From Bacillota bacterium (GTDB lineage Bacteria; Bacillota; Dethiobacteria; DTU022): a stretch of 64,000 nucleotides of DNA. Under the pieces are notes generated by a model. That model did not search any database and had not been told where the DNA came from. It saw only the letters and a list, made by a program, of their open reading frames with translations. The position numbers were made by a program, and so were the translations under genes. The stretch's first letter is position 1, and each line of letters starts with the position of its first letter. Of this stretch, positions 3,513 through 62,381 are shown piece after piece. The stretch is from positions 4,158-68,157 of the forward strand of contig JAABTH010000001.1 of assembly GCA_011389985.1 (NCBI GenBank), given 5' to 3'.

Positions 3513-3661
3513 CTGTTTAATGATAAGCCCTGTCTTCCTGAAAGTGCCTGATCAATGCCGCCTTGGCAGTAAGTTCATCTTCATTCAGACGAGGGATGCC
3601 AAGTATGCTGTAGAGCACATTTTCTCCGGTTCAGTATAAGCTTTCCTTAAAGTTGTAGTTT

Positions 3662-46303: not shown

Positions 46304-46495
46304 AATTATTTAAATTAAAATAATGAGTAGAATTTGAATAGCAAAACTGATGAAATGGTGTTTGTGATAAAATAGTTTCTGTTCTGCATTCTGTTCGACA
46401 TAGTGCAGACATATGAAGAAATCTATGATAGTATGTATTTGTCCGGTCGCTGATAAAATTAATAATGGCCGGGCAATATTTTTGTGAGGATATAG

Positions 46496-47434: not shown

Positions 47435-47444
47435 AATTGTTCTC

Positions 47445-48788
47445 ATGTTTTCTAAAGGGGGTTCAGCTTTGACCGCTTTGGGGAATAAAGGGTACCTTTA
47501 TAACAGTGTGAATTTAAAAATTCGCTGGATTATGTGGTTTTCGTTGATCCTTCTTCATTTGGTTACTTCGTTTCATCGTGTTTCTTTTAATGTAGTCGCC
47601 GATCTTTTAACCGCTGAATTTAATCTAACCGGGGCCGGTCTCGGTAACCTGGCTGCAGCTTATACATACATGTATGTTCTGATGCAAATACCGGGCGGCA
47701 TTCTGGTTGATCGACTGGGCCCAAGACGCATAGCCCTTTTAACCGGGCTGGCGATGGCAAGTGGTTCAATCGTAATCGGGTTTGCTCCAAGCGCTGATTT
47801 TGTTTTTCTGGGCCGCATGCTGATTGGTTTCGGGGGCTCAGTTGTTTTGATCAACATTTTTAAATTCCAGGCTTCATGGTTCCGTGCGGCTGAATTTGCT
47901 ACCATGTCGGGTTTTGCCCTGCTCATAAGCACAAGTGGCGCACTGTTGGCAGCTACTCCGCTGGCCGTGGCGGTAAATGCATATGGGTGGCGTACATCTT
48001 TTATTGCTTTCGGGCTGATGACAATAGTGGTGGCATTTTTCTGCCTATTTATTGTTCGTAACAGCCCCGGAGAAAACCAGGATAACATTGCTTCCGGTAT
48101 TGATAATGATTCAGTCCAAAATGAACCAATAAAAATAAACCTGCAGGCAATTAAAACTGTTTTATCAAACCGCAAGTTATGGATTCCCTTCCTGATAAAT
48201 CTTGGCACCTACAGCGGTTTTGTTGTTTTTGCCGGAACATGGGGGGTTTCATACCTTGTTCATGTGTACGGTATCGGTATTGAAAGAGCATCGGGTTTTA
48301 TGGTGGCCGCTTACATCGGTTACATGGTAGGAGCGCCGTCTGCCGGGGCAATATCTGATCGAATCGGCTCCCGGAAAACACCTGCCGTGGTATTGATCGG
48401 CTTAGCTGCCCTTTTCTGGTTAGCCCTTGCTGCCTGGCCGGGCGGCTTGCTTCCTTTGTGGCTGATCTACGTTTTATGTGTGCTCCTGGGTTTGGGGAGC
48501 GCAGCAACTGTGCTCAGTTTCCCCATGGCCCGTGAAGTTAGTATTCCCGGATATACGGGCCTGGTGACGGCTGCAGTGAACCTTGGAGTTTTCCTCGGTA
48601 TGGCAATATTACAACCTTTTTTCGGTTACATTTTAGATCAGGGCTGGCAGGGTTTAATAATTGATGGCGCCCGCATTTATCCGTTGGAAGCTTACCGGAT
48701 TGGTTTTATTGTTACTTTTATTTTTGCCGCCCTGTCGTTTGTTGCAACTCTTTTTTACCGGGAAAGCAGAATGGGAGAGAAAGCTTAA
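47445..48788 (+). CDS. MFS transporter
   Basis: 12-TM MFS with a G-x-LaD-r-x-G-rr-like loop (LVDRLGPRRIALLTG). True start uncertain; possibly the internal Met at ~47532. Confidence 0.75.
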   Translation: MFSKGGSALTALGNKGYLYNSVNLKIRWIMWFSLILLHLVTSFHRVSFNVVADLLTAEFNLTGAGLGNLAAAYTYMYVLMQIPGGILVDRLGPRRIALLTGLAMASGSIVIGFAPSADFVFLGRMLIGFGGSVVLINIFKFQASWFRAAEFATMSGFALLISTSGALLAATPLAVAVNAYGWRTSFIAFGLMTIVVAFFCLFIVRNSPGENQDNIASGIDNDSVQNEPIKINLQAIKTVLSNRKLWIPFLINLGTYSGFVVFAGTWGVSYLVHVYGIGIERASGFMVAAYIGYMVGAPSAGAISDRIGSRKTPAVVLIGLAALFWLALAAWPGGLLPLWLIYVLCVLLGLGSAATVLSFPMAREVSIPGYTGLVTAAVNLGVFLGMAILQPFFGYILDQGWQGLIIDGARIYPLEAYRIGFIVTFIFAALSFVATLFYRESRMGEKA

Positions 48789-49786
48789 TGAAGAAAATGA
48801 CATCCAGGGAAAGAATTCTGGCTGCGCTTGCCCTGAATGAACCTGATCAGATCCCTTTTGCAGACGATGTGGATCCTGCTGTCAGGGCTATGGTTATGGA
48901 GTCTGAACAATACAGCGATATCAAATTTTGCCGTAAACTGGGTCTTGATGCAATTGATTACCGGGGCAAAGAGTACTGGTCGCCCCTGTTTTATAAGACT
49001 GTAATTAAAAACGGATACGAATTTCAGCTTGACGGCATGATCAAAAGGGAACGTGACCTCAATTTAATGATTTTTCCTGATTCATCGGATGCAAGCCTGT
49101 ATGATCCGATTAAACGTTATGTTGATAAATATGCTGGGGAAGATCTGGCAATTTTTCTCTACATGGCCTGGGGCATGGATTGTGTGATCAGTTCAATGGG
49201 TTTTGAGGCATTTTCAGAAGCTTTATATGACAACAGAAAACTTGTCGAGAATATTCTCGACCGTTATACAGAGTGGAACAGTGCTATAGTCGATCGCTTA
49301 AATTCAGTGGGAATTGATTTCATCATAACCTATAATAACATTGCTTTTAACAGCGGGCCGTTATTTTCTCCCCAGGTTCTACGAGAGATATTTTTGCCGA
49401 AAATAAAATTGGTTGCAGATGCCTGTAAAATCCCCTGGGTATTTCACAGTGATGGTAACATCAGTCCGATTTTGGAAGACTTGCTTACCCTGCGCATGAA
49501 CGGTATCCACCCGGTTGATCCTTTAAGTATGGATTTGCGTAAAATCAAAAAGCGCTATGGTGAGCGGGTATGCCTTTGGGGTAATGTTGACCTGTCATAT
49601 GCACTGACAAGAGGTACCACTGCTGAAGCGGAGGCAGAAGTAATAAGATGCATTAAATCGGCCGGCCCGGGTGGAGGATACATTTTGGGAAGTGCCAACT
49701 GCCTGCCCGGCTACGTTAAGAAAGATAATGTGCTGGCCATGGCCGGGGCTGTAAAAAAATATGGCAAATACCCGCTTAAGCTCTAA
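48788..49786 (+). CDS. uroporphyrinogen decarboxylase (URO-D) family protein (MtaA/MtbA/MtqA-like methylcobamide methyltransferase family)
   Basis: URO-D fold pattern throughout. Start overlaps the MFS stop (ATGA). GGGAGAGAAAG RBS. Confidence 0.7.
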   Translation: MKKMTSRERILAALALNEPDQIPFADDVDPAVRAMVMESEQYSDIKFCRKLGLDAIDYRGKEYWSPLFYKTVIKNGYEFQLDGMIKRERDLNLMIFPDSSDASLYDPIKRYVDKYAGEDLAIFLYMAWGMDCVISSMGFEAFSEALYDNRKLVENILDRYTEWNSAIVDRLNSVGIDFIITYNNIAFNSGPLFSPQVLREIFLPKIKLVADACKIPWVFHSDGNISPILEDLLTLRMNGIHPVDPLSMDLRKIKKRYGERVCLWGNVDLSYALTRGTTAEAEAEVIRCIKSAGPGGGYILGSANCLPGYVKKDNVLAMAGAVKKYGKYPLKL

Positions 49787-49819
49787 ATGTTATAATTGTA
49801 AAAAGGGGAGGCGGTTTGG

Positions 49820-50938
49820 GTGGAAAGGAAAATCAGGGAATATGCTCTGGAGATAGGTTTTGATGAAGTAGGCTTTACAACCGCTGATCCATTTCCTCAG
49901 CTCATTAGCGCTCTAGAAGAGAGAAAAGAAGGTTACAGCTGGATTAGTGAAAGACTGCTGCAGCTTGCTCATGTGGCTGATCCCCATTTTGTTCTCCCCT
50001 CGGCCAAATCGATTGTTGTCCTTTTATATGATTACTACAAGCAGGCTTATCCGGAAGAGCTTCTCGGCCGGATCGGCAAGGCTTACCAGTCAAGACTGTA
50101 TCCCGGGAAAAAGCGCTTATTCGGAAGCCGCCTACGCCTGATCAGGGAGTTTCTTGAAGAGAAGGGAATGGAAGTGGGTATAAGACCGGCTATGCCGGAA
50201 CGTCAGGCAGCGGTAAGGGCAGGGGTAGGCAGGTTTGGCTGCAATACTTTTGTTTATGCCCCTGGCAGGGGTAGTTATATCGGGATCGTGGCAATGGCCG
50301 TCAGCGCCGAATTAGATCCAACAAGTGCAGATGCCGAATCAGGATGCCCCGATGATTGCCGCCGCTGCATCGAGGCCTGCCCAACAGGTGCGCTCTATGC
50401 TCCCTTTAAAATGGATCCCCTTCGCTGTATTGCTTTCAACACTTACGGCGCCGGAAATTTCCCCGGCGCACCTGAAGATATTCCCAATGATATCCGTGAA
50501 AAAATGGGCTCATGGATCTATGGTTGCGATCTCTGTCAGGATGCATGCCCAAAAAATCAAAAACGCCTAAACCAGGAGCTGCTACCTGATGTATACCTTG
50601 AGGAGGCAGCACCCGGGTTTGCGCCCGAGGTTCTCCTCGGTATGGATGATCGCTATTTCAGGGAGAAAGTGCAACAACTTCTTTATGGTTATATCTGGGA
50701 GAAGAAGTTTATCCAGCGCAATGCTGCCATTGCTCTTGGCAACCGCGGAGATGATGCTTATATTGGACTGATAGCGGATGCTCTTAAAGATCCCGAAGAT
50801 ATAGTTCGTCGCTACAGCGCCTGGGCTTTGGGACGTATAGGCGGGCTTAAAAGTAGGAAAGTTTTGGATGTGGCTCTGAAAAGAGAAGATCTACCGGCTG
50901 TGAAAGAAGAGATTAAAGAAGCACTTGGTAAAAGCTGA
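49820..50938 (+). CDS. QueG-like 4Fe-4S / HEAT-repeat protein (epoxyqueuosine reductase family; related to reductive dehalogenase-type cobalamin enzymes)
   Basis: CPDDCRRCIEACP and CDLCQDACP ferredoxin motifs, followed by C-terminal HEAT/PBS-lyase-like repeats (RRYSAWALGRIGG). Confidence 0.5.
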   Translation: MERKIREYALEIGFDEVGFTTADPFPQLISALEERKEGYSWISERLLQLAHVADPHFVLPSAKSIVVLLYDYYKQAYPEELLGRIGKAYQSRLYPGKKRLFGSRLRLIREFLEEKGMEVGIRPAMPERQAAVRAGVGRFGCNTFVYAPGRGSYIGIVAMAVSAELDPTSADAESGCPDDCRRCIEACPTGALYAPFKMDPLRCIAFNTYGAGNFPGAPEDIPNDIREKMGSWIYGCDLCQDACPKNQKRLNQELLPDVYLEEAAPGFAPEVLLGMDDRYFREKVQQLLYGYIWEKKFIQRNAAIALGNRGDDAYIGLIADALKDPEDIVRRYSAWALGRIGGLKSRKVLDVALKREDLPAVKEEIKEALGKS

Positions 50939-50988
50939 ACGGGATGATGTAAAGTTTTAAGCGAGAGATTAAAACAGGGAGGCTTAAT

Positions 50989-51807
50989 ATGGATAAGTTG
51001 ATCGTAACGGTTGCGCCAACAGGAAATGTGCCTACCAGGAAAACAAATCCTTACCTGCCGGTAACTCCCGAAGAGATTGCAGAGGATCTATACCGCTGTT
51101 ACAAAGCCGGTGCATCTGTTGCCCATATTCATGCCCGGGATGAACAAGGTAAACCTTCAGCCGACCCGGATCTGTTTCAGGCAATTACAGAACTAATCCG
51201 TGAAAAATGCGACATCATTATTCAGTTATCTACCGGTGCGCGTGCCGGCAAAAGCGCTGATGAACGCAGCGCCTGCATAGCCCTAAAGCCTGAAATGGCC
51301 AGCCTTTCAACCGGATCAACAAATTTTGCCCGTTCGGTTAATTATAACCCGCCGGCGTTGATCAAAGAGCTTGCCGGGCGAATGGAGAATCATGGCGTTA
51401 AGCCTGAAATAGAGGTTTTCGATCTTTCAGCCCTTGAGTATGCCATCTATCTGGTCGAAAAAAAGATCCTGAAAGGGCCCATGCACATTAATCTTGTTCT
51501 GGGTGTGCCCGGATCTATCAGCGGAAGCCCCCGCAATTTATTTTTTCTGGTGGAAAGTTTGCCTGCCGGTTGCACGTGGTCTGTGACAAGCATAGGCAGT
51601 AGCCACCGGCAATTGAGTGCCCTTGCTCTTATTCTGGGCGGGCATGTTCGCACCGGTCTTGAAGATGTTCTGGAACTGGAAGCCGGAAAGCCTGCTTCAA
51701 ATCTTAAACTGGTTGAAAGAATCGTTGCTTTGGCCCGTTTTTACGGTCGTGAGCCTGCTACACCGGCAGAGGCCCGCTCTATTCTCGGTTTACCTGCACT
51801 TTTCTGA
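50989..51807 (+). CDS. BKACE-family enzyme (3-keto-5-aminohexanoate cleavage enzyme-like, DUF849)
   Basis: LIVTVAPTGNVPT...HIHARDEQGKP...IIIQLSTG...INLVLGVPG matches the Kce/BKACE TIM-barrel signature. Confidence 0.7.
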   Translation: MDKLIVTVAPTGNVPTRKTNPYLPVTPEEIAEDLYRCYKAGASVAHIHARDEQGKPSADPDLFQAITELIREKCDIIIQLSTGARAGKSADERSACIALKPEMASLSTGSTNFARSVNYNPPALIKELAGRMENHGVKPEIEVFDLSALEYAIYLVEKKILKGPMHINLVLGVPGSISGSPRNLFFLVESLPAGCTWSVTSIGSSHRQLSALALILGGHVRTGLEDVLELEAGKPASNLKLVERIVALARFYGREPATPAEARSILGLPALF

Positions 51808-51833
51808 GATTTCCAAGAATTCCTGAGATATTG

Positions 51834-51863
51834 TTGACACAACAGGCACTGGTAAGATAATAT
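51834..51863 (+). promoter_or_regulatory. sigma-A-type promoter TTGACA-N17-ATAATA for the hisC-like gene leader
   Basis: Seen directly, ~120 nt upstream of the start codon. Confidence 0.45.
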
Positions 51864-51912
51864 TGGTATTAAGAAAAGCAGAATTAGTAACATTTTTTAA
51901 ACCTGCTGCTCA

Positions 51913-51970
51913 TAGCTAACAGATATGAGGGAGCACCGGGGTATTATCCCGCGTGCTCTTAATTTATTTT
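51913..51970 (+). promoter_or_regulatory. leader attenuator: TAG-N4-CAG-N4-GAG triplet array abutting a strong intrinsic terminator (10-bp bulged stem, 7-nt loop) and U-tract, 13 nt before the RBS of the hisC-like gene; candidate HutP-type antitermination site
   Basis: Seen directly: cat-TAG-ctaa-CAG-atat-GAG-ggag, then GAGCACCGGG-gtattat-CCCGcGTGCTC, then TTAATTTATTTT. The third NAG overlaps the 5' arm of the hairpin. Confidence 0.5.
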
Positions 51971-51983
51971 CGGAGGGGAAAAG

Positions 51984-53087
51984 ATGCAAATAATCAGTAA
52001 GCGTGCGAACCTGGATACAATTAAGGCTTATGTGCCCGGTAAACCTGTTGAAGAGGTGGAACGTGAACTGGGTGTAAAAGTTGAAGCAAAACTGGCCTCT
52101 AATGAAAATACTCTGGGGCCTTCTCCCCTGGCCGTTCGAGCAATTATTGAATCAGCCGATCATGTGAACCTATATCCTGATGGAAGCTGTCACTATCTGC
52201 GCAATGCGTTGGCCAGTAAAATTGGAGTTGATCCCGGCCAGCTAATGGTCACGAATGGAGCTGACGAGGCTCTCTCACTGATTGCCCGCACTTACATTAA
52301 CCCCGGCGAAGAAACAGTAATGCCTGATCCAAGCTTTCCCCAATATGAATTTGCAACAAGGGTGATGGACGGCAAACCACAGGTGGTTCCTCTTAGAAAA
52401 GATTTCAGCTATGATTTAGATGCGATGCTTTCTGCAGTTAATGAACATACTCGCATATTCTATTTATGCAGCCCAAATAACCCGACAGGAACCATTCTGA
52501 CAAAACCTGAACTTGAGAAAGCGCTTGATCAATTACCCGGGAACGTTTTGGTTGTGCTTGATGAAGCCTATTATGAATATGTGACCGAACCTGATTATTT
52601 CAATGCGCTGGATTATATCAGGAGCGGATATCCTGTTATAGCGCTTCGAACATTCTCCAAGATTTATGGCCTGGCAGGCTTGCGGGTGGGCTACGCTATA
52701 GCTGACGAAATGATAATAAAAGATCTGAATTCCGTGCGTGAACCCTTCAATGTGAACCGTGTTGCCCAGGTTGCTGCAGCTGCTGCGCTCGAAGATGATC
52801 AGCACGTTACGAGGAGCCTTGAAACAGTTGAAAGAGGAAAAGAATTACTTTTCGGCGAGCTTAAGTCGCTTGGTTTTTACTGTTACCCCACTCAGACCAA
52901 CTTTATTTTTGTTGATTTCAGACAGCCAACAGATCAGCTCTTTCAGGAACTGCTTAGAAAAGGCATTATTATAAGACCGGGCGGTATCTATGGTTATCCT
53001 GAACATGCCCGGGTGACAATTGGTACGGATATGGAAAACAAAAAGTTCCTGGAGAAACTGAAAGAAATTGTGAGCGCAAAGGTTTGA
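51984..53087 (+). CDS. hisC: histidinol-phosphate/aromatic aminotransferase family protein (class II PLP aminotransferase, HisC-like)
   Basis: LASNENTLGPSP at the N-terminus. PLP-lysine context FSKIYGLAGLRVGY. 367 aa. Confidence 0.8.
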   Translation: MQIISKRANLDTIKAYVPGKPVEEVERELGVKVEAKLASNENTLGPSPLAVRAIIESADHVNLYPDGSCHYLRNALASKIGVDPGQLMVTNGADEALSLIARTYINPGEETVMPDPSFPQYEFATRVMDGKPQVVPLRKDFSYDLDAMLSAVNEHTRIFYLCSPNNPTGTILTKPELEKALDQLPGNVLVVLDEAYYEYVTEPDYFNALDYIRSGYPVIALRTFSKIYGLAGLRVGYAIADEMIIKDLNSVREPFNVNRVAQVAAAAALEDDQHVTRSLETVERGKELLFGELKSLGFYCYPTQTNFIFVDFRQPTDQLFQELLRKGIIIRPGGIYGYPEHARVTIGTDMENKKFLEKLKEIVSAKV

Positions 53088-53105
53088 GGAAGGTGAGATG
53101 TTAAG

Positions 53106-55127
53106 ATGCTCCATCCGTTATTCTATCCCCGGGCAGTCGCCGTTATCGGCTCTGCCGCTGAAGGTAAAATTGGCCATACCCTGATCAGCCAGCTGGTTGA
53201 AGGTGGTTTCAGCAACGTTTTTGCTGTAAACCCCAAATCACAGGGAGTCGGTACAGTACCCGGTTTTGAATCGGTAAGTGTTATTGGCAGCCCGGTAGAC
53301 CTGGCTGTTATAGCTTCACCTGCATCAACTGTCAGCGCAATTCTTGAAGATTGCGGAAAAGCCGGCGTTAAGGCGGCGATTGTAATTACTGCCGGATTTT
53401 CTGAAACCGGCAACATCGATGGCGAAATCGAGCTTAAAGCTATTGCAGACAGATATAAAATTCGCTTTGCCGGTCCTAACTGTGCAGGCATAATCAATAA
53501 CCACCACAATCTTTCTCTGACCCTTGAAACAGTACCGCCACTGGGCAAAACAGCCCTTGTTTCTCAAAGTGGCGCTCTTGGTGGTTTAATTCTCTCCTGG
53601 GCTGAAGAACAGGGCCTGGGGTTTTCAAAATTTATCAGCTACGGCAATGCTGCTGATATAAATGAGACAGATCTTCTGGAATATCTGATCAACGACAGCG
53701 AAACTGAAGTTGTGGCTTTATATGTGGAAAGTGTAAAAGACGGGCGTCGTTTTTATGAAGTTGCTTCCCGGTTAACAAAGACAAAACCGCTTGTCGTGAT
53801 CAAATCAGGACGAACTGAATCAGGCAGAAGGGCTGCTCAGTCGCATACCGGTTCAATGGCCGGCTCAGATGCTGTTTTTGACAGTGTGTTGCTTGATTGT
53901 GGCGCTATGAGAGTTTATAACGTGGAGGAAATGTTTGACCTCTGTAAGGGATTGACATCCCTCCCCCCCTTGAAAGGGAAGCGTCTAGCAGTTGTGACAA
54001 ATTCAGGAGGTCCAGGGGTGATGGCTGCAGACCATGCTGAATCTATCGGTTTGGATCTAGCCGAACCGGGCAAAAGACTCCGTGAAAAGCTTTCAGTTTT
54101 TCTGCCTCCCCAGTGTGCCCTGAAAAACCCTATTGATTTAACCGTTGAGGGAACTGAAGAAGGATACAGAAAAGCGCTTATGGCTGTACTGGAAGAATAT
54201 GATGCTGCTGTCGCAGTTTACGTGGGCACCCCCAGTCTTGCCTCGGGGCCGATTGCCGCAGGGGTATGCCAGGTAGCAATGGATACAGAAAAACCGGTTG
54301 TTCCCACTTTTATGGCGGGCAATACAGTAACAGAAGCATTAAAGCGTTTTAAGGAGTGCGGACTGCCAAATTATGCAACAGGAGAAAGGGCAGTTTCAGT
54401 GTTGGCTAAAATGGCGGAATATGAGAATGGAAAGCAGAAAGAGGCAGCCCTTTTAAAATATGACGGACCGGTGACAGGTCTGCCCGCCCGGGGACAATTG
54501 CTCGAGCCTGAAGCGATGACTTTGTTAAAGGAAAACGATCTGCCCGTGCCGCGGTTTTTATTTGCATTAAACCCGGATGATGCAGTTGGCGCTGCAGCGG
54601 AGATAGGCTATCCTGTTGTTATGAAAGTTGTTTCTCCTGATATCCTGCACAAGTCGGAATATGGCGGGGTAATAATAAATATTATGGGTGCTAAAGAGGT
54701 TGAGGCTGCTTTTGAAAAGATAGAAGATGGTGCAGCCGGGAAAGATTTTCGAGGCGTTGTAATTTATCCTATGATTAAAGATGCGAGGGAAGTAATACTG
54801 GGGCTCTATCGCGATCCGCAGTTTGGCCCGGTTGTTGCTTTCGGCATGGGCGGTATATACACGGAAATCATTGGAGATATTGCTTTAAGGCTTGCCCCGC
54901 TGACCCAAAAGAGAGCAGCCGGGATGATCAGGGAAATAAAAACTTTACCTTTGCTGGAAGGTATGCGCGGGCAGAAGGCAGTCAATTTCGATCTGCTCGA
55001 AAGAATGCTTGTCAGCTTTTCTTTATTACCCTTTAAGTATCCGGATATTACAGAAATGGATCTCAATCCTGTATTCCTGAAAGAGGATGATATATTTGTC
55101 GGGGATGTGCGGATAATCCGAGCCTGA
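53106..55127 (+). CDS. ADP-forming acyl-CoA synthetase (acetate--CoA ligase (ADP-forming) family, fused alpha/beta subunits)
   Basis: N-terminal CoA-binding and succinyl-CoA-synthetase-like domains (AVIGSAAEGKIGHTL...), then a C-terminal ATP-grasp domain. 673 aa. Confidence 0.8.
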   Translation: MLHPLFYPRAVAVIGSAAEGKIGHTLISQLVEGGFSNVFAVNPKSQGVGTVPGFESVSVIGSPVDLAVIASPASTVSAILEDCGKAGVKAAIVITAGFSETGNIDGEIELKAIADRYKIRFAGPNCAGIINNHHNLSLTLETVPPLGKTALVSQSGALGGLILSWAEEQGLGFSKFISYGNAADINETDLLEYLINDSETEVVALYVESVKDGRRFYEVASRLTKTKPLVVIKSGRTESGRRAAQSHTGSMAGSDAVFDSVLLDCGAMRVYNVEEMFDLCKGLTSLPPLKGKRLAVVTNSGGPGVMAADHAESIGLDLAEPGKRLREKLSVFLPPQCALKNPIDLTVEGTEEGYRKALMAVLEEYDAAVAVYVGTPSLASGPIAAGVCQVAMDTEKPVVPTFMAGNTVTEALKRFKECGLPNYATGERAVSVLAKMAEYENGKQKEAALLKYDGPVTGLPARGQLLEPEAMTLLKENDLPVPRFLFALNPDDAVGAAAEIGYPVVMKVVSPDILHKSEYGGVIINIMGAKEVEAAFEKIEDGAAGKDFRGVVIYPMIKDAREVILGLYRDPQFGPVVAFGMGGIYTEIIGDIALRLAPLTQKRAAGMIREIKTLPLLEGMRGQKAVNFDLLERMLVSFSLLPFKYPDITEMDLNPVFLKEDDIFVGDVRIIRA

Positions 55128-55229
55128 AAACCGGATATATTTGACATTGATTTCAGCGGTATTTATAGTAAAATAAAGTTGTGTTTAATTTCACAACAGC
55201 GTTTAAACCGCTCTCGGAGGATATAATAT

Positions 55230-55676
55230 TTGAGTACTTTAGGTAGTATTGCTATAGGTATCGCCATTGCCGAAGCTGGTGAAGAGGCAGAAACGTTAAT
55301 TAGCGAGGCGCGAAAACTGGGCTATAAGGCTATCCGCAGCCAGGTAGGTTCAATGTCAATGGATAAGGTTATTGCCGCTATTGAGACAGCTTCGCGCCGA
55401 GAAGGGATAATTTCCGACACATATCACCAGGAACATGCTCTTTACCATGCTATAATTGATGCTTTGCTCGGAGTTTGCCGGGGCCAGCTTGAATTGGGTA
55501 ACATTGTAAGGACCGTAGGGTTAAGCTATTCGGTGGTGTGTGGACCGATCAAGTCTGACTGCAACAGGGAAGAAAATTGGATCATGGTAGTTTTATACGG
55601 AACGATTGGAGCTCCGATTAAAGGTTTTGAGCATGAGGCAATTGGCCTCGGCACTTACCATATAGACACCAGATAA
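55230..55676 (+). CDS. hutP: HutP-family RNA-binding antiterminator protein
   Basis: 148 aa. VGSMSMDKVIAAIETASRREGII...HALYHAIIDALLGVCRGQ...VRTVGL...LYGTIGAPIKGFEHEAIGLGTYHI aligns closely with B. subtilis HutP (VGSMDAHKVIAAIETASKKSGVI...HALYHATMEALHGVTRGE...LRTVGL...LYGTIGAPIKGLEHETFGVGINHI). TTG start with a GGAGG RBS. A TTGACA-N17-TATAGT promoter lies at ~55143. Confidence 0.8.
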   Translation: MSTLGSIAIGIAIAEAGEEAETLISEARKLGYKAIRSQVGSMSMDKVIAAIETASRREGIISDTYHQEHALYHAIIDALLGVCRGQLELGNIVRTVGLSYSVVCGPIKSDCNREENWIMVVLYGTIGAPIKGFEHEAIGLGTYHIDTR

Positions 55677-55690
55677 AAGTCAGGCAATAT

Positions 55691-55806
55691 CAGATTGCAG
55701 GTGTCAGCCCGGCCTTGCAGTAACAAACCAAATAGTTAATGCTTTTTACAGGCACATTAGACAACAGACAAGAGAGTGTTCTAGATTCTGGCGCTCTTTT
55801 TTTGTT
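55691..55806 (+). promoter_or_regulatory. hutP-iorA intergenic leader with two NAG-N4-NAG-N4-NAG arrays (CAG-attg-CAG-gtgt-CAG at 55691-55707; TAG-acaa-CAG-acaa-GAG at 55758-55774), an imperfect hairpin (55770-55798) and T-run (55796-55806); candidate HutP-dependent terminator/antiterminator
   Basis: Triplet spacing seen directly. The second array overlaps the 5' arm of the hairpin. The stem is imperfect (7 bp with one mismatch), so terminator strength is uncertain. Confidence 0.45.
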
Positions 55807-55843
55807 TAGAATTAATACAGAAAATTGTACAGGAGGTGCTGAT

Positions 55844-57721
55844 TTGAGCTTAAAATTTATATCCGGCAATGAAGCGATTGCGTACGGTTCACTCCGGGCC
55901 GGAGTTAAGGTTGTTTCAGGTTATCCCGGAACCCCTTCGTCAGAAGTAATTACAAGTTTGTTGAAGAATAAACCGGAAGGTGTATATGTTGAATGGAGCA
56001 GTAATGAAAAGGTAGCTTTTGAAATTGCAGCGGCTGCTTCCTGGGCGGGACAGCGTGCTTTATGCACCATGAAAATGTCCGGTCTGAACGTGGCCTATGA
56101 TTCACTGGCTTCTGTTGCTTATTCCGGCTGCAGCGGTGCTCTGGTAGTATATGTTGCTGATGATCCCGGTGTTAGTGCAGGGATGTGCGAGCAGGACTCA
56201 AGAGGTTTTGCCCTGATGTCGGATATGCCCATGCTTGAGCCTGCCTCGGTTGAAGAAGCTTACAGCTTAACCCGGTTTGCCTTTGAGCTGTCAGAGTCAA
56301 CCGGGACCCCTGTTTTTATCAGGATGGTAACGGCTACTGCTCTTTCATATGGTGGAATGGATCTAGAGGACCCTCCTGTGTTCCCGGAGCGCGAACCGAA
56401 ACTGATAAAAGATATTGCCAAGTATACAAAAGCCGGTTCAGCAATCTGCCTCGATCAGCACAGTGATGTAATTGAGCGCTTGAGTGAAGCAGGAGAGATC
56501 ATCAGGGGAAAAAAGATAAACAGGTTATCGCTTTCTCCTAAAGCCGGCGGCCTTGGCATTATTGTTGCCGGAGCTGTTTTCCCCTACCTGGAAGAAGGTT
56601 TAAGGCTGGTTGAAGAACATGGTTTCAAAATCGGTCCCGTTTCAACTTTAAAAGTGACAGCGACTGTGCCTTTTCCTGCTGAAGAGGTTAGAAGCTTAAT
56701 CAAGCATTGTTCATCCCTGCTTATTTTGGAAGAGCTCGAGCCCCACCTGGAAAAAGATCTTTATATCGAGGCTCATAAGTTTGGTTTTTCCGGAAAGATA
56801 ATCGGCAAACTTGACGGCACCCTGAGCCGAATTGGTGATTATTCCGCTGAACAAGTGGTTAAAGGGATCGCGGCAGCGTTTACTCTTAATTTACCCGCCG
56901 GTATTTTCGGAGATGAATATAAAGGTGAGAAACTTACTGCTTCAAGGCCTATTACCACCTGTGCCGGCTGCCCACACCGCGGAACATTCTTGGCAATCAA
57001 TAAAGCTATAAAAGAGCTTAAATTTAAAAAAGATGAAGTGGTGGTCACCGGTGACATCGGCTGCACCATTCTTGGCATGAACCCGCCATTTAACACGGTA
57101 TGGACAGAGATATCGATGGGTGCAAGCATCGGATTTGCCCAGGGCTATTATCACAGCGGGGTAAAAACCCCGGTTATCGCCACCATAGGTGATTCTACAT
57201 TTTTCCATGCAGGCATACCATCTCTGGTAAATGCTATTCAGCACCAGGTTCCATTAACGCTGATTATAATGGATAACGGCTGGACCAGTATGACCGGAAT
57301 GCAGGTCAGCCCGGGTACTGATGAAAAGTTTCAGCAGCCAGGCAATCAGCGTCTTGATCTGGCTAAAATATTGCCGGCTCTGGGTATCGATCATTTTAAA
57401 ATGATTAATCCATACGAACTTGAAGAGTCTACTGCGGCAATTCGCGAAGCGATGACTCTTCCCGGTGTAAAGGTAATTCTATCCCGCCAGGAATGTGCAA
57501 TTCAGGCTATGCGTCAGGGTAAACGTTACGGGAAAAGCACGGTTATTGAAGATAACTGTAATAAATGCAAGCTGTGCATTACTGTTACCGGCTGCCCGGC
57601 AATTTCTCTCGGAGAGGAATCGATCGTTATAGATCCGGCTTTATGCTATGGCTGCGGTCTTTGCAGCCAGGTGTGCAATCGCGAAGCGATTGAAAGGGGG
57701 CCTGTAAAAGATGTATTATGA
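55844..57721 (+). CDS. iorA: indolepyruvate:ferredoxin oxidoreductase subunit alpha (IorA; TPP enzyme with 2x[4Fe-4S])
   Basis: ISGNEAIAYGSLRAGVKVVSGYPGTPSSEV at the N-terminus, a TPP-binding GDIGC/GDSTFFH region, and C-terminal CNKCKLCITVTGCP / CYGCGLCSQVC. Start placed at a TTG with a GGAGG RBS 7 nt upstream; the track ORF starts earlier, inside the leader. Confidence 0.85.
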   Translation: MSLKFISGNEAIAYGSLRAGVKVVSGYPGTPSSEVITSLLKNKPEGVYVEWSSNEKVAFEIAAAASWAGQRALCTMKMSGLNVAYDSLASVAYSGCSGALVVYVADDPGVSAGMCEQDSRGFALMSDMPMLEPASVEEAYSLTRFAFELSESTGTPVFIRMVTATALSYGGMDLEDPPVFPEREPKLIKDIAKYTKAGSAICLDQHSDVIERLSEAGEIIRGKKINRLSLSPKAGGLGIIVAGAVFPYLEEGLRLVEEHGFKIGPVSTLKVTATVPFPAEEVRSLIKHCSSLLILEELEPHLEKDLYIEAHKFGFSGKIIGKLDGTLSRIGDYSAEQVVKGIAAAFTLNLPAGIFGDEYKGEKLTASRPITTCAGCPHRGTFLAINKAIKELKFKKDEVVVTGDIGCTILGMNPPFNTVWTEISMGASIGFAQGYYHSGVKTPVIATIGDSTFFHAGIPSLVNAIQHQVPLTLIIMDNGWTSMTGMQVSPGTDEKFQQPGNQRLDLAKILPALGIDHFKMINPYELEESTAAIREAMTLPGVKVILSRQECAIQAMRQGKRYGKSTVIEDNCNKCKLCITVTGCPAISLGEESIVIDPALCYGCGLCSQVCNREAIERGPVKDVL

Positions 57722-58307
57722 TATTTATCTGGTTGGCGTAGGCGGCCAGGGTATACTTACAATCGGTGAAATTATTGCCGAAGCGGCCTTAAAACTTGAT
57801 ATTCCTGCCAATTTTTACCCGACCAAGGGGATGGCTCAGCGGGGTGGTTTTGTTAAAGCTCAGCTGCGTCTGGGTAGTTACAATGTGGGTCCAAGTATCG
57901 CTGAAAAAGGAGCTAACCTGGTTATTGCCATGGAGCTTTCCGAATCGCTGAAAGCACTGCGTTACTTTAAACCGGATGGTGATTTTGCCCTTTACAGTTC
58001 GGTCTGGTCTCCTACGGCTGTAATGCTTGGAAAAGCGCCATATCCGGCAGTAGAAGAAGTTTTAGCAGAGATTAACAAAACAGGTGGAAGGACTATCCAC
58101 ATCAAACCTGAAGAAAGACCGCAATTTGAAGGACAGCCCGTCCCTGAAAATGTTTATGTTTTAGGAGCTGTATGTCGCCATTCTTCATTGGGCCGGTTTA
58201 TCGACCCTGAGGAAATCAGGGCTACCATAAAGACCAGGTGGAAAAAGGGAATAGAAAGAAATCTATATACTTTTGATGCCGGGTTTAATCTTAACAATCA
58301 AGATTAA
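57711..58307 (+). CDS. iorB: indolepyruvate:ferredoxin oxidoreductase subunit beta (IorB)
   Basis: MYYDIYLVGVGGQGILTIGEIIAEAA is the pyruvate/ketoisovalerate oxidoreductase gamma-like signature. Overlaps the iorA stop (ATGA). Confidence 0.85.
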   Translation: MYYDIYLVGVGGQGILTIGEIIAEAALKLDIPANFYPTKGMAQRGGFVKAQLRLGSYNVGPSIAEKGANLVIAMELSESLKALRYFKPDGDFALYSSVWSPTAVMLGKAPYPAVEEVLAEINKTGGRTIHIKPEERPQFEGQPVPENVYVLGAVCRHSSLGRFIDPEEIRATIKTRWKKGIERNLYTFDAGFNLNNQD

Positions 58308-58367
58308 TATGCGTCCTCTTATGATAAAATAGTAATAATTATTCATTGTGATGTTGATAATTCGGAG

Positions 58368-59810
58368 GTGTTCAAAATAACCGCGTATCGTTCAAATTAT
58401 AGTCAACAGTTATCCCCGAAGTTAAGCTGGTTCTGCGAAAGCCAGATCGAAGAGATTCACAGCGCTACAATTGATGTTCTTGAGAGAGTTGGTGTAAGGG
58501 TTGATCATGATCAAGCCCTCAGACTTTTAAAAGATGCAGGGTGTATAGTAAAAGACCGCGTGGCCAGAATTCCGGGCTGGCTCGTCGATGAAGCAATCAA
58601 ACTTGCTCCTTCAAAAGTCAATATTTACAGCCGTGAGGGCGAACCGGCGATGAGCCTGGAAAAGAATTGCACTTATTATGGCACTGGTTCAGATTTGCCC
58701 TTTCACCTTGATCTTGAAACGGGAGAAAGGCGGGGATCTGTTAAACAAGATATCATTAATGCTGCAGCTATTATGGAAAATCTTCCTAATTTTGATTTTG
58801 TGATGAGCTACGCCATACCAGGCGATGTAGAGGCTGCAAGAGGCTGCCTGCACCAATTTGCAGCGCTCACCCTACATACGGCCAAGCCAGTTATCTTTAC
58901 CGCTTTGAGTGAAGAGCACACCAGGACAATTATCGAAATGGCCGCTGCCGCGGCCGGTTCTTATGACAACCTGCGGGCTAAACCTTATATTATTATCTAC
59001 GATGAACCAATTTCACCCCTGGTCCATACTTATGATGGTATTGCTAAAATGTTTGCCTGCATAGAACATGGCATACCGGTTATTTATACACCCGGTGTTG
59101 TTGCCGGAGGAACCTGCCCGGTAACAAAGGCCGGCACAATTGTGCAGATGAACGCGGAATCTCTTTCCGGCCTTGTTATAGCCCAGCTTAAGCAAAAGGG
59201 CGCTGCCGTTATTATTGGCGGTGGGGCAACCCCGATGGATATGAAAACTACGGCGACGCTTTATGGCTCACCGGAGGCGGCGATGAACTATGCTGCTATG
59301 ACAGAGCTTGCTCAGTATTACAGGTTACCCAATTTCACTGAGGCGGGCTGCTGCAATGCTCCTGTGCCCGACGCCCAGGCCGGGATGGAAGCGGCAATTG
59401 GTCTTTTGCTTAACCAGCTGTGCGGCGCCAACCTGGTTCACGACGTGGGCTACCTTGATTGTGGAAAAACCGGATCACTGCCTTTCCTGGTAATGTGTGA
59501 TGATTTTATCAGCGCTGTTCGGTATATCGGGGCAGGAACCCCGATCAACAGCGATACAATCGGCGTCGATACCATTGTAGAGGTTGGCCCGGCAGGCCAT
59601 TATCTTGGTGAAGATCATACCATGAAACATTTTCGTAATGAGATCTGGATGCCTGCAGTATTTAACAGAATGATGTATGAAGTCTGGGAGCAGCTGGGCA
59701 GTAAAGACTGTTTGGATCTGGCCCGGGAAAAGGTAATCAATATTCTAAAGGATGAGCCGACTAATGAACTATCGCCGGCTATATCCAGGCAGATTATAAG
59801 CTTGTTGTAA
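58368..59810 (+). CDS. MttB-superfamily methyltransferase (trimethylamine methyltransferase family, non-pyrrolysine member; quaternary-amine:corrinoid methyltransferase-like)
   Basis: 480 aa, continuous with no in-frame TAG. Conserved MttB-family N-terminal region (QIEEIHSATIDVLERVGVRVDHDQALRLLKDAGC). Start codon uncertain: the GTG at 58368 abuts the GGAGG. Confidence 0.8.
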   Translation: MFKITAYRSNYSQQLSPKLSWFCESQIEEIHSATIDVLERVGVRVDHDQALRLLKDAGCIVKDRVARIPGWLVDEAIKLAPSKVNIYSREGEPAMSLEKNCTYYGTGSDLPFHLDLETGERRGSVKQDIINAAAIMENLPNFDFVMSYAIPGDVEAARGCLHQFAALTLHTAKPVIFTALSEEHTRTIIEMAAAAAGSYDNLRAKPYIIIYDEPISPLVHTYDGIAKMFACIEHGIPVIYTPGVVAGGTCPVTKAGTIVQMNAESLSGLVIAQLKQKGAAVIIGGGATPMDMKTTATLYGSPEAAMNYAAMTELAQYYRLPNFTEAGCCNAPVPDAQAGMEAAIGLLLNQLCGANLVHDVGYLDCGKTGSLPFLVMCDDFISAVRYIGAGTPINSDTIGVDTIVEVGPAGHYLGEDHTMKHFRNEIWMPAVFNRMMYEVWEQLGSKDCLDLAREKVINILKDEPTNELSPAISRQIISLL

Positions 59811-60509
59811 GAATTAAGGTGAACCTTAATAAGAGACTGAACAAGTGGATTACTTTTCGGGAAGATTTATTTCCCCTCTAAGAAGGAGATCCGGGTGGAT
59901 TAGAACCTGACGAACATGTACATCGCTAGCAGGATTATAATCCGACAGCATTCTCAAGACAAAAGAAGTATTGGAGGGTTTTTGGTATGCAACCATTTAC
60001 ACACAAGCAATCTTTCTTTGGATATGTTATGTTGGCGACATTTTTAACATTTTAATAGCACCTTGAGGACAAGAGTTAGAGCAAAGCCCACAGCCTATAC
60101 ATAAATCTTGGTTAAATGCAACTTCTTTCTAGAAATAATAATTAATCATGGCAAGAAAAAAATGAACATTTAGCTGCTCAAATTAACAACCCTATGCTAT
60201 AGGCTGCTACATACACATTAAGATTTAACTGTATTTAATGGAGCAATGCATTCTTTTGAAAGGGAATATGAGGAACGCCTGAGTCAAGCGAAGAGAATCA
60301 TACAATTATTCACAAGATTATTCAACGCAATTATTGAAACATAAGCATTATTGTTAACTATACAAGCAAAATAGATTTAACTATGCCTGACCGTATCAAG
60401 GATAAAAGTTATGCAAATCGTATAAATGTTATGCATTTTCGGATAGCCCCTACCACTATTAATGATATAGAGTTTAAAATATTAGTGATGCATAAATTTT
60501 ATGCGAATA

Positions 60510-62222
60510 CTATTCAGGTTTAGTAATATCAAGCTTTTTCATCCTATAATCCAGGCTTTGTCTTATTATACCTAATTCTTTAGATGTTTTAGTCAAATGC
60601 CAGTTGTTTTTCAACAAGCTTTTTCGAAGTATCCTTGCTTCAAACGTATTTAGCATTTTGGGCAATGATTGAGTTGAATTTGTGCGAGAACTCAAATCGT
60701 CTTGTTGGACGAGACTGTCTATAAAGAAGTCTGGTAAATGTTCAACGCCTAATTGCTTTCCATCAGCTTTTATCATTGCAGATTGTATGGTGTGTTCAAG
60801 TTCACGTATATTCCCCGGCCATTGATATTTAATTAATGTCTGTTGAAGTTCATTCACCAAAAATTCAATTTTCTTACCTAACAGCTTTTTATGTTTATTG
60901 ATGAAATAATAAGAGAGATAAATAATATCCTTATCGCGTTCTCTTAAAGGCGGTATTTGAATAATCGCTCCAGCAATTCTATAATAGAAATCTTCTCGTA
61001 GAATATTTCTTTCGATTAATTCCGCAGGGTTTTTATTAGTAGCACAGATTAATCTACAATTAACTGGTATTGTATTTAACCCCCCGATTTTCCTAATAAG
61101 CTTTTCTTCAACCGCCCGAAGAAGTTTAGTTTGTAGCGTGATTGGGAGTGAATTGACTTCATCTAAAAACAAGGTCCCCTTCTTGGCTGCTTCAAATAAA
61201 CCAATTCGATCTACTGCACCAGTATAGGAACCCTTAACAGTACCAAAGAGTGTACTTTCAAGTAAATTTTCAGGGATAGCGGCACAGTTAATAGCAATAA
61301 ATGGTTCGTTTTGATTCTGACCAAAGTTATGGATACTCTGGGCAAAAAGCTCTTTTCCTGTTCCCGTTTCACCTACAATTAGTACATTGGTCTGCATTAA
61401 AGCAACATTCTGGGCTTCTTTAATTAGACCTTTCATCTTCTTGCTTTCTGATTTTATATTATCAAATGTATACTTTGTGCCATTTCTGTTTATCGGTCTT
61501 TCGCTTTGACTACTATCATTTGAGAATAATTGTCTTTTTAAATCAATGGTTTCGTGTAGCAGGTTTCTTAATGACGTTTCATTTTTACTGACAGTATAGA
61601 CGGCAATGGTCTTGCCGTTTTTATAAATTGGATATGTGCTATATGAAAGATATTTAGCTTCGCCATTAGTAAATGCATGTGCCTTATAAGCATTAAATAT
61701 CGGTTTGCCGGAATTAAACACCTCTCTGTGCTCAGACAGCTCTGGATTATTGTATCCATATGCATCCCAGAGATATTTTCTTAGTATATTTTTTGCTTTT
61801 AATCCTTCCAATTCTTCTTGAGACTTATTATATAGAACTAATCTGCCATTATGGTCGCTGATAATGACACCCTCATAGATGTTATCAATAATCTCTTCCA
61901 GGCAATAAAGCCTAACACTATCATTGCAAAAATCTACCATGCTGTTAAAAATAATAATCTGGTATTCGTTTTCTTCAGATTGGCATAGCTTTAACTTTAC
62001 CTCATATACTTTATCTCTTATAGTATGTAAGGTCTCGCCATCTTTTTTCAAGGATTTTAGATCAATATCAATCACAGATGATAGTGAATTACCATATATA
62101 ACTTCCCTGGTGCATAACGGTTTTATTTTTCGATCAGCAAAAATAATTTGATCACTTTCATCTAATACTATGCAACCATCTATATATTCTTCCAGTAATT
62201 CAATTAAAAACAACCCTTCCAT
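60510..62222 (-). CDS. sigma-54-dependent transcriptional activator (bacterial enhancer-binding protein) with N-terminal PAS domains and C-terminal Fis-type HTH
   Basis: AAA+ sigma-54 interaction domain (VLIVGETGTGKELFAQSIH; the GAFTGA-type loop reads GSYTGA; ...), then C-terminal HTH LTKTSKELGIIRQSLDYRMKKL. Transcribed divergently from hutU. Confidence 0.85.
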   Translation of the reverse strand: MEGLFLIELLEEYIDGCIVLDESDQIIFADRKIKPLCTREVIYGNSLSSVIDIDLKSLKKDGETLHTIRDKVYEVKLKLCQSEENEYQIIIFNSMVDFCNDSVRLYCLEEIIDNIYEGVIISDHNGRLVLYNKSQEELEGLKAKNILRKYLWDAYGYNNPELSEHREVFNSGKPIFNAYKAHAFTNGEAKYLSYSTYPIYKNGKTIAVYTVSKNETSLRNLLHETIDLKRQLFSNDSSQSERPINRNGTKYTFDNIKSESKKMKGLIKEAQNVALMQTNVLIVGETGTGKELFAQSIHNFGQNQNEPFIAINCAAIPENLLESTLFGTVKGSYTGAVDRIGLFEAAKKGTLFLDEVNSLPITLQTKLLRAVEEKLIRKIGGLNTIPVNCRLICATNKNPAELIERNILREDFYYRIAGAIIQIPPLRERDKDIIYLSYYFINKHKKLLGKKIEFLVNELQQTLIKYQWPGNIRELEHTIQSAMIKADGKQLGVEHLPDFFIDSLVQQDDLSSRTNSTQSLPKMLNTFEARILRKSLLKNNWHLTKTSKELGIIRQSLDYRMKKLDITKPE

Positions 62223-62366: not shown

Positions 62367-62381
62367 TGGCATGATAGTTGC
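62367..62381 (+). promoter_or_regulatory. sigma-54 (-24/-12) promoter TGGCAT-N5-TTGC upstream of hutU
   Basis: TTGGCATGATAGTTGC is seen directly, ~40 nt upstream of the hutU start and adjacent to the divergent sigma-54 activator gene. Confidence 0.65.

Follow-up and report, generated by a model that had tools for sequence, protein, structure and literature searches.

The window analysed in this work is a 64,000-nt stretch of contig JAABTH010000001.1 (assembly GCA_011389985.1) from a Bacillota bacterium of the Dethiobacteria, and the system considered here lies on its plus strand between 46.5 and 59.8 kb. In this region, a gene encoding a member of the RNA-binding antiterminator family HutP is embedded among genes for a HisC-class aminotransferase, an ADP-forming acyl-CoA synthetase (ACS), a two-subunit oxidoreductase resembling indolepyruvate:ferredoxin oxidoreductase (IOR), and a methyltransferase of the MttB family, and two leaders of the HutP type precede these genes. 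The assignment of the gene families and of the promoters, leaders, and terminators is read from the sequence, as are synteny and the homology between leaders. All genes named in a preceding sequence-only reading of the same DNA, namely the aminotransferase, the fused ACS, HutP, IorAB, BKACE, the EamA and MFS transporters, and hutU, were recovered by matches to Pfam and NCBIfam profiles.

That reading had treated positions 51984-58307 as a single block. By sequence, the genes instead fall into two transcription units, and a separate promoter and HutP-type leader belong to each of them. The first unit begins with a sigma-70-type promoter, P1 (TTGACA-16-GATAAT, 51834-51861), located 27 nt past the stop codon of the preceding BKACE gene, and continues with leader 1 (51905-51970), the gene for the class I/II, pyridoxal phosphate-dependent aminotransferase (51984-53087; Pfam Aminotran_1_2, 5.9e-68; TIGR01141), and the gene for the fused alpha/beta ACS (53106-55127; CoA_binding, Succ_CoA_lig, Ligase_CoA_2, and ATP-grasp_5 domains). 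The second unit is composed of the sigma-70-type promoter P2 (TTGACA-17-TATAGT, 55141-55169), hutP (55230-55676; Pfam HutP, 2.4e-25; NF002838), leader 2 (55677-55843), iorA for the alpha subunit (55844-57721; POR_N, TPP_enzyme_C, and Fer4, the last with 2x[4Fe-4S]), iorB (57711-58307; Pfam POR, 1.5e-25), which overlaps iorA by 11 nt, and, as its last gene, a non-pyrrolysine mttB (58368-59810; Pfam MTTB, 6.9e-90). P1 and P2, starting at 51834 and 55141, are the top sigma-70 matches in an 18-kb scan, each agreeing with the consensus at 11 of 12 positions. Two boundaries required correction. The start of iorA had been placed at the open reading frame start, 55739, which falls within the regulatory leader, and translation likely begins at the TTG at 55844 behind the ribosome-binding site GGAGG at 55832-55836; the block had been closed at 58307, and mttB continues the unit 60 nt past iorB with no terminator between them. 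The start of mttB is itself uncertain, as the GTG at 58368 sits within GGAGGTG.

Both leaders follow the same plan, in which three XAG triplets with 4-nt spacers stand at the 5' edge of an intrinsic terminator, between the promoter and the genes. In Bacillus subtilis, site I of HutP likewise consists of three NAG triplets with 4-nt spacers abutting the terminator stem (PMC2425495; PMC12591593). The triplets of leader 1 are TAG at 51913, CAG at 51920, and GAG at 51927 (TAGctaaCAGatatGAG; the longer stretch behind P1 reads gctgctcaTAGctaaCAGatatGAGggagcaccggggtattatcccgcgtgctcttaatttatttt), and the terminator follows directly, with a stem at about 51930-51958 and a T-rich tail extending to 51970. 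This leader folds with -31.7 kcal/mol (z -3.76), a stability reached by none of 200 shuffles, and its segment at 51905-51911 is complementary to the terminator's 5' arm, with which it could form a putative antiterminator. Leader 2 carries two triplet sets, the first at 55691-55707 (CAG-ATTG-CAG-GTGT-CAG; CAGattgCAGgtgtCAG) and the second, 50 nt further 3', at 55758-55774 (TAG-ACAA-CAG-ACAA-GAG; TAGacaaCAGacaaGAG), which leads into an intrinsic terminator at about 55770-55803 ending in seven T (gcgctcttttttt); the same arrangement is present in three related loci (L001, L107, and L108). The HutP control proposed in the sequence-only reading thus gains sequence-level backing from two conserved triplet-terminator leaders, and it is highly probable that HutP controls both units.

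Comparison with other HutP loci supports this regulation. A scan of a genome collection for HutP yielded 16 loci, and more were added by protein look-ups. Of 20 loci, 15 have a triplet set with a terminator no more than a few kb from hutP, across Bacillota, Atribacterota, and a metagenome-assembled genome (MAG) of a candidate phylum, against a background of about 0.09 sites per 10 kb for the same filter in 1.7 Mb of HutP-free loci. When 17 leaders are aligned, none of the three triplets varies at its A or G, and the bases immediately flanking the triplet set on its 5' and 3' sides can pair with each other, with compensatory changes between lineages (GCUC/GAGC, UACUC/GAGUA, CCC/GGG, and GCAC/GUGC). 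The duplex energy of this NAG-loop helix beats that of same-register shuffles in 17 of 17 leaders (mean z -1.9), its pairing amounts to 78.9% versus 67% in shuffles (matched by 0 of 500), and its double-change cells number 19, where 8.8 would be expected (0 of 500), better than in every slid register, although the aligned leaders are mutually related, so that these shuffle tests do not amount to probabilities. The 3' arm of the helix doubles as the 5' arm of the terminator, a sharing by which the leaders resemble a classical antiterminator/terminator switch whose antiterminator loop presents the HutP site.

Leader 1 is homologous to the leaders of hutH in two sister genomes (L006, ctcaTAGttaaTAGacatGAGggagcaccggg...cccgcgtgttcttttt, and L004) whose MttB proteins are 76-80% identical to that of the window. 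The lyases encoded there pass the hutH equivalog with 700 and 694 bits, respectively (cutoff 539), which rules out an ergothionase or trimethylamine-lyase identity for these HutP-adjacent enzymes. Judged by this homology, it is one riboregulator that drives histidase in the sister genomes and the aminotransferase and ACS here. Upstream of iorA in 70 related but HutP-free loci, the NAG motif was found in 4 cases versus 4.7 expected, which is background only, and HutP control would thus be a lineage-specific trait, not a property of the module.

HutP, IorAB, and ACS are found together again in three arrangements of the Dethiobacteria-like type, and the Atribacterota show an independent case. In two MAGs (L107 and L108; HutP 96% identical), the gene order of the window from EamA to MttB is retained together with both leaders. 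In L001 (HutP 85% identical), a HutP leader stands before genes for a UbiD-family decarboxylase and a histidine-racemase-like protein, followed by hutP, a leader, iorAB, and mttB; the position of the first of these leaders suggests further HutP-controlled imidazole chemistry, and UbiX and LpdD are encoded upstream of it (1290-3607 of that locus). The third arrangement (L109-L111; HutP 68% identical) consists of a leader followed by genes for a corrinoid protein, an MtmB-like protein, IorA (67% identical), IorB, a class-III aminotransferase, ACS (60% identical), and HutP, and an MttB paralogue and a molybdopterin oxidoreductase cluster lie 3' of hutP (L109, 1465-12327, and also L110 and L111). 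The MtmB-family protein of L109 is of the non-pyrrolysine type and its class-III aminotransferase is HemL-like, and the presence of a non-homologous aminotransferase in the same slot argues that the function has been selected. In Atribacterota, one locus has hutP and a leader (TAGtcatTAGataaTAGggggtgaa) directly before iorAB, and in a second, hutP and a leader are followed by genes for a polar-amino-acid ABC transporter and a LarA-like racemase and then by iorAB and ACS. Since the IorA proteins of the Atribacterota, at 46-47% identity, do not belong to the clade holding the window IorA, HutP has joined IOR-type genes at least twice.

The enzymes themselves are assigned with differing precision. 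The aminotransferase scores above the hisC equivalog TIGR01141 (344.2 bits, cutoff 276.55), and its best relatives in the PDB are Listeria HisC (3FFH) and then the aromatic aminotransferase of Mycobacterium tuberculosis (4R2N), so that among solved structures it falls between HisC and the mycobacterial aromatic enzyme. Its gene is not part of a his operon, is preceded by a HutP leader, and stands translationally close to the ACS gene, a context on which a biosynthetic HisC role is rejected. The ACS, a protein of 673 aa, combines the CoA-binding, CoA-ligase, and ATP-grasp regions (alpha and beta), with five Pfam domains, in one chain and stays below every NCBIfam equivalog cutoff; the reaction proposed for it is acyl-CoA + ADP + Pi -> acid + ATP + CoA. 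The best NCBIfam match of IorA is IOR_alpha (TIGR03336; 569.6 bits, cutoff 650.9) and that of IorB is IOR_beta (TIGR03334; 126 bits, cutoff 205.8), and, both being below the cutoffs, they are filed as IOR-like rather than as proven IOR. The two-subunit IorAB architecture is present, with thiamine pyrophosphate and 2x[4Fe-4S] regions in the alpha subunit, a beta subunit of the POR gamma type, and overlapping genes.

The IorA of the window is 79% identical to that of L001, 67% to that of L109, and at most 65% to those of 80 loci without HutP. These 80 loci, obtained in a metagenome scan with IorA at 50-65% identity, mostly carry the series IorA, IorB, ACS, and HisC-like aminotransferase, and orthologues of the window aminotransferase (40-46% identical) come last in the modules of these loci; hutP was found near none of the 80 closest modules. 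Because the four genes are conserved in HutP-free loci, the catalytic module is, on its gene content, a common and conserved transaminase-oxidoreductase-synthetase branch, and the lineage-specific trait is its rearrangement around hutP (aminotransferase and ACS, hutP, IorAB) together with its capture by HutP leaders. The pathway logic put forward earlier, leading from an aminotransferase through an IOR-type oxidoreductase to an ADP-forming synthetase, holds. Two deep-branching IorAB-ACS loci have other neighbours: urocanase, aconitase-X, 2-hydroxyacid dehydrogenases, and a thiamine pyrophosphate enzyme in L086 (6061-18233), and a LarA-like protein, an amidohydrolase, and urocanase in L101. These neighbourhoods hint at imidazole substrates for this IOR family.

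HutP itself passes both Pfam PF09021 (89.7 bits, cutoff 25) and NF002838 (164 bits, cutoff 155) and matches the PDB structures of B. subtilis HutP with an E value of 4e-36. Residues Y69, H73, H77, R88, R98, T99, E137, and H138 (B. subtilis numbering) are conserved, and E81 is replaced by D, as is also the case in a classical hutP-hutH-hutU locus (L012). In the B. subtilis protein, Y69, H73, H77, E81, R88, R98, and H138 are the ligands of L-histidine and Mg2+. Another HutP, encoded beside URO-D and CobW genes (L020, 9986-12564), carries the changes E55M, Y69F, and H77D, on account of which this paralogue may bind a different effector.

From these elements, the following switch and pathway can be proposed. 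HutP, as a hexamer, would bind the three NAG triplets of each leader, which are displayed in a hairpin loop, when Mg2+ is present together with L-histidine or an alpha-amino acid closely resembling it, and binding would block formation of the terminator, allowing RNA polymerase to read through. As hutP lies upstream of leader 2 and could also be reached by read-through from the first unit, positive feedback would result. The HisC-class aminotransferase would convert histidine to imidazolepyruvate, the IorAB-type oxidoreductase would oxidize the latter to imidazol-4-ylacetyl-CoA with release of CO2 and reduced ferredoxin, and the ADP-forming synthetase would turn imidazol-4-ylacetyl-CoA into imidazole-4-acetate with the formation of ATP. 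The MttB-family enzyme would most likely move an N-methyl group from a methylated histidine derivative to a corrinoid, by which histidine would be fed to the branch and the methyl group to C1 metabolism. A histidine-family substrate for this oxidative, ATP-yielding branch is the best reading of the locus, and we consider it somewhat probable. The earlier proposal of histidine as the substrate gains comparative support from the homology to hutH leaders and the independent recurrence in Atribacterota, while what we infer is the effector of HutP, the direction of flux, and every substrate, the specificity of the enzymes included.

Several observations weigh against this reading. At the level of the RNA, a second XAG-rich site (site II) would be expected 12-17 nt 3' of the first, across the stem, but no regular second triplet set was found within or 3' of the terminator of leader 1, and the extra sets of leader 2 (55663 and 55691) stand upstream, 50 nt off the second set; the B. 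subtilis leader needs two NAG sites (PMC2425495). The terminator of leader 2 is weak alone (whole-leader z -0.97), and the bare pattern NAG-N4-NAG-N4-NAG is not enriched in the window (30 found versus 26 expected), which is why a terminator and conservation were also required in the comparisons. At the level of the regulator, HutP shares only 53-59% identity with its hutH-linked counterparts in the sister genomes, and the changes R70H/E71Q, adjoining the ligand residues, are unique to the subtype found in the window and L001, whose effector may differ. Regarding the enzymes, the IorA proteins of the window and L001 are nested inside the HutP-free IorAB-ACS-aminotransferase clade, and the window ACS and aminotransferase are likewise nested among HutP-free modules. 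IOR is best known for arylpyruvates, and the enzymes here may be broad or aromatic-specific. A complete classical hut operon, discussed below, probably lies next door and would make a second route for free histidine partly redundant. Finally, free histidine leaves the MttB gene unexplained, and the window, searched by tblastn, encodes no corrinoid protein.

The presence of the methyltransferase leads to the explanation that survives best beside free histidine, namely that the locus belongs to a methyl-histidine regulon in which hercynine, N-alpha-methylhistidine, or N-pi/N-tau-methylhistidine, possibly supplied as a peptide, is demethylated; the freed histidine would then act as the signal for HutP and also serve as fuel for the aminotransferase, IorAB, and ACS, with HutH taking their place in the sister genomes. 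This is a tentative proposal, and it extends the best explanation without excluding it. The sequence-only reading had described a unit without a methyltransferase, leaving out both the mttB gene co-transcribed with iorAB and the recurrence of HutP with corrinoid methyltransferase genes. In every Dethiobacteria-like arrangement, an MttB orthologue lies 3' of hutP (L001, L004, L006, and L107), and the adjacency of HutP and MttB is kept in L001, L004-L007, and L107 although the deaminating enzyme differs. In other Bacillota, too, methyltransferase-system genes stand behind HutP leaders: a different mttB paralogue in Thermacetogenium (L010), genes for a corrinoid protein and a peptidase in L011, one for a pterin-binding methyltransferase in Syntrophaceticus (L014), and, directly, one for a URO-D protein in L020; and in L109 the corrinoid protein, MtmB-like protein, IorAB, aminotransferase, and ACS all follow one HutP leader. 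In relatives, mttB is usually followed by genes for a peptide-type ABC transporter and a PrpD-family protein and by a second mttB, none of which is present in the window; the peptide-type transporters are in line with a peptide feedstock. Given this recurrent pairing of HutP with methyltransferases, the likely feedstock shifts towards methylated histidine, or a peptide containing one, although we would put this possibility below even. A URO-D/MtaA-like orthologue (53% identical) lies between hutP and mttB in L006 and L007, and the corresponding protein of the window (48788-49786) is a possible partner of MttB.

The MttB of the window contains a full-length MTTB domain (PF06253, 301.9 bits, profile positions 27-487 of 500). 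It falls below the cutoff of the trimethylamine-specific model TIGR02369 (407.5 bits, cutoff 525), and its open reading frame is uninterrupted, with no in-frame UAG for pyrrolysine and with a Cys aligned to the pyrrolysine of 7XCL, which together set it apart from the pyrrolysine-containing trimethylamine enzyme. It is about equally distant from that enzyme and from the glycine betaine enzyme MtgB, being about 30% identical to both structures. The substrate residues of MtgB are Y97, R312, H348, and F356, of which R312 is reportedly conserved in all members of known function (PMC13080624). In the window protein, these positions are S, F, H, and G, so that only H348 of the four is kept, and specificity of the glycine betaine type is ruled out by these active-site residues. 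The HutP-linked MttB clade has Cys-Cys where the trimethylamine enzyme has pyrrolysine and lacks the Arg at position 312, features that predict a non-betaine-type substrate. The loss of the carboxylate-binding Arg and of the aromatic residues of MtgB (PMC13080624) fits a methylated histidine insofar as the substrate must differ. The substrates listed for the MttB family in 2026, however, are trimethylamine, glycine betaine, proline betaine, carnitine, gamma-butyrobetaine, and phosphocholine, with no histidine derivative among them (PMC13080624). In addition, known non-pyrrolysine members take one methyl group off a quaternary amine, which from hercynine would yield no transaminable primary amine, and the window lacks a corrinoid protein, a reductive activase, and a pterin methyltransferase; tblastn of the window for a corrinoid protein, an MtmB-like protein, a pterin methyltransferase, hutH, and hutI found none. 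Literature searches returned nothing on MttB with hercynine and nothing relevant on methylhistidine with corrinoid.

A second alternative, which we regard as unlikely, is a generic aromatic branch, in which the aminotransferase, IorAB, and ACS oxidize phenylalanine, tyrosine, or tryptophan to arylacetates with the formation of ATP, and HutP either reads histidine as a mere signal of peptide or amino-acid availability or has drifted to an aromatic effector. Imidazolepyruvate and arylpyruvates cannot be separated as substrates by sequence alone, and the alternative draws on the IOR alpha and beta models being the top family matches of IorA and IorB, on 4R2N being the second-best PDB relative of the aminotransferase, on the nesting of the window IorA among the 80 HutP-free modules, and on R70H/E71Q in the HutP subtype. 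Neither oxidoreductase subunit reaches its curated IOR equivalog cutoff, however, and the histidine and Mg2+ ligand residues of HutP are conserved apart from the E81D exchange. The neighbourhoods also argue for histidine over aromatic amino acids, since the same leader drives a true hutH in the sister genomes, a histidine-racemase-like gene stands under a HutP leader in L001, the Atribacterota version comes with a polar-amino-acid ABC transporter, and two lineages acquired the link to HutP independently of each other.

It is very improbable that HutP does not act on these genes at all, in other words that the NAG triplets occur by chance, the hairpins are ordinary terminators or attenuators, and hutP is a mere neighbour. 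The chance-level frequency of the bare pattern in the window agrees with this view, as does the number of promoter- and terminator-like sites found by consensus scan, which is only slightly above shuffled expectation; yet triplets and terminator are kept in register in 17 leaders adjacent to hutP from distant taxa, with covariation in the flanking helix, and related genes in HutP-free loci lack the arrangement. A biosynthetic direction, in which ACS would activate arylacetate or imidazole acetate, IorAB would carboxylate the CoA ester reductively, giving the 2-oxoacid, and the HisC-like enzyme would aminate this to the amino acid, can be dismissed almost entirely: IOR and ADP-forming synthetases are reversible in principle and the aminotransferase passes the hisC equivalog, but this gene lies outside any his operon, HutP, by analogy with B. 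subtilis, would turn genes on with histidine present, which is the wrong logic for synthesis, and ADP-forming synthetases normally run in the ATP-forming direction (PMC9986279).

With histidine or a derivative of it as the preferred substrate, the classical hut genes adjoining the cluster deserve consideration. A sigma-54 enhancer-binding activator with a PAS domain (60510-62222, minus strand; Sigma54_activat, PAS, and HTH_8) is followed by a sigma-54 promoter read from the sequence (TGGCAT-N5-TTGC, 62367-62381, plus strand) and by hutU (62422-64000, plus strand), a urocanate hydratase family gene cut at the window end, whose product contains three Urocanase Pfam domains and scores above TIGR01228 even as a fragment (606 bits, cutoff 375). 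S-methylthiourocanate and thiourocanate hydratase identities are set aside, as the corresponding models stay below their cutoffs (NF058531, 625 versus 880; NF058530, 568 versus 930). The S-methylthiourocanate hydratase model nevertheless gives the fragment 625 bits, slightly above the 606 bits of the hutU model, though under its cutoff of 880, and a 78% identical homologue bears the UniRef label 'N(tele)-methylurocanate hydratase', an unverified label. The full-length protein identical to this hutU product has 566 aa and is encoded on a 69,493-nt contig. Homologues with 91% identity head the series hutU-hutI-ftcD-hutH, and in Crassaminicella thermophila this operon lies behind a sigma-54 PAS activator; the activator of the window is PrdR-like, below the cutoff (351 bits, cutoff 795). 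By analogy, the window hutU probably heads a classical hutU-hutI-ftcD-hutH operon under sigma-54 control, and the 5.5 kb beyond the window are enough to hold hutI, ftcD, and hutH. The classical pathway expected in the sequence-only reading is thus likely to adjoin the cluster, with the remaining genes placed past the window end on the strength of the 91%-identical homologues. Two histidine routes side by side would mean a division of labour, or else hint at use of the HutP route for a histidine derivative.

The block upstream of P1, all on the plus strand, encodes an EamA transporter (46496-47434), an MFS transporter (47445-48788), the URO-D/MtaA-like methyltransferase mentioned above, whose assignment is weak (Pfam URO-D, 1.4e-22; MtaA-family matches below cutoff), a QueG-like Fe-S/HEAT protein (49820-50938; 170 bits, cutoff 200), and BKACE (50989-51807). 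BKACE and the two transporters had been noted immediately upstream in the sequence-only reading; as parts of the route they, like the QueG-like gene, find no support, and BKACE and the transporters probably do not belong to it: the EamA-MFS-(URO-D)-QueG-like-BKACE block (46496-51807) is syntenic in L006 (1964-6566) and L108 (1262-6574), and in L006 it lies 3' of lysine 5,6-aminomutase genes and 5' of the hutH leader. The QueG-like protein is a cobalamin/Fe-S-type enzyme encoded beside the URO-D-like methyltransferase. The GC content over positions 44001-60000, from lepA to mttB, is 0.43-0.49; on the flanks it is lower, with 0.35-0.42 at 14-44 kb and 0.34 at 60-62 kb. Between mttB and the sigma-54 activator gene lie 700 nt of AT-rich non-coding DNA (59811-60509; GC about 0.34), and the same slot in the close relative L107 holds the peptide-type ABC transporter, PrpD, and second MttB, so the segment is possibly the scar of a deletion or rearrangement.

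The relation of this locus to known systems can be summarized in terms of regulation, pathway, and enzyme family. In a 2025 review, hutPHUIGM is the sole target given for HutP (PMC12591593). As in B. subtilis, hutP is the first gene of a unit with a sigma-70 promoter, and a triplet/terminator leader comes next. The leaders here, unlike that of hutPHUIGM, precede genes for the aminotransferase, ACS, IorAB, and MttB instead of hutHUIG; there are two regulated units, leader 1 shows no evident second regular NAG site, the covariation of the helix points to a classical antiterminator hairpin and not solely to the terminator melting modelled for B. subtilis, and the classical hut genes are seemingly under sigma-54 control. 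The proposed chemistry is that of the ICS route of Thermococcus, in which histidine is transaminated and oxidatively decarboxylated to imidazolylacetyl-CoA, with ATP formed by an ADP-forming synthetase (PMC9986279), and the likeness is one of pathway logic only. The Thermococcus route is archaeal, with scattered genes, a two-subunit synthetase, and no known regulator, whereas the genes of the window are bacterial and clustered and include a fused synthetase, IorAB as a candidate oxidoreductase, and a riboregulator of the histidine type. There is thus an archaeal precedent for the route but no known bacterial or HutP-linked example, and literature searches found no paper in which HutP is linked with IOR, or a ferredoxin oxidoreductase with imidazolepyruvate. 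The IorA/IorB architecture, ADP-forming synthetase, and aminotransferase also correspond to the IOR and ACS II of Pyrococcus and Thermococcus and to bacterial IorAB modules; compared with such aromatic fermentation, the gene order is rearranged under HutP leaders and the subunits score below the equivalog cutoffs. With the MttB superfamily members MtgB, MtpB, MtcB, and MtyB, the window protein shares the full-length MTTB domain without pyrrolysine and the conserved His348 of MtgB, and it differs from them in having HutP as its genomic partner, Cys-Cys at the pyrrolysine position, and no adjacent corrinoid protein, MtgA-type methyltransferase, or RamA in the window.

The occurrence of HutP leaders before aminotransferase, IOR, and ACS genes and before corrinoid methyltransferases widens the regulon of a textbook riboregulator, and such a leader provides a ligand-based clue to the substrates of enzymes annotated by family alone. 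This clue is useful because the oxidoreductase of archaeal histidine catabolism is explicitly stated to be not yet identified (PMC9986279), and thousands of non-pyrrolysine MttB homologues exist, most of them without a known substrate (PMC13080624). The locus offers clonable candidates, namely IorAB (55844-58307), ACS, the aminotransferase, and MttB, and a short list of candidate compounds, comprising histidine, imidazolepyruvate, hercynine, and the N-methylhistidines. In habitats such as digesters or anoxic alkaline sites, the proposed route would turn histidine into imidazole acetate and provide ATP and reduced ferredoxin. More speculatively, HutP may govern a methylated-histidine regulon in anaerobic Bacillota, in which a distinct MttB-family clade, with MtmB-like, URO-D, corrinoid, and pterin methyltransferase partners in relatives, would demethylate hercynine or N-methylhistidine onto cobalamin. 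The methyl group would enter C1 metabolism, and the histidine set free would induce HutP and be oxidized to imidazole acetate, with a gain of ATP, by an imidazolepyruvate:ferredoxin oxidoreductase and an imidazolylacetyl-CoA synthetase dedicated to this purpose. If true, this would add a new substrate class to the MttB superfamily, constitute the first HutP regulon outside hutHUIG, and supply the missing oxidoreductase of the transaminase route in histidine catabolism.

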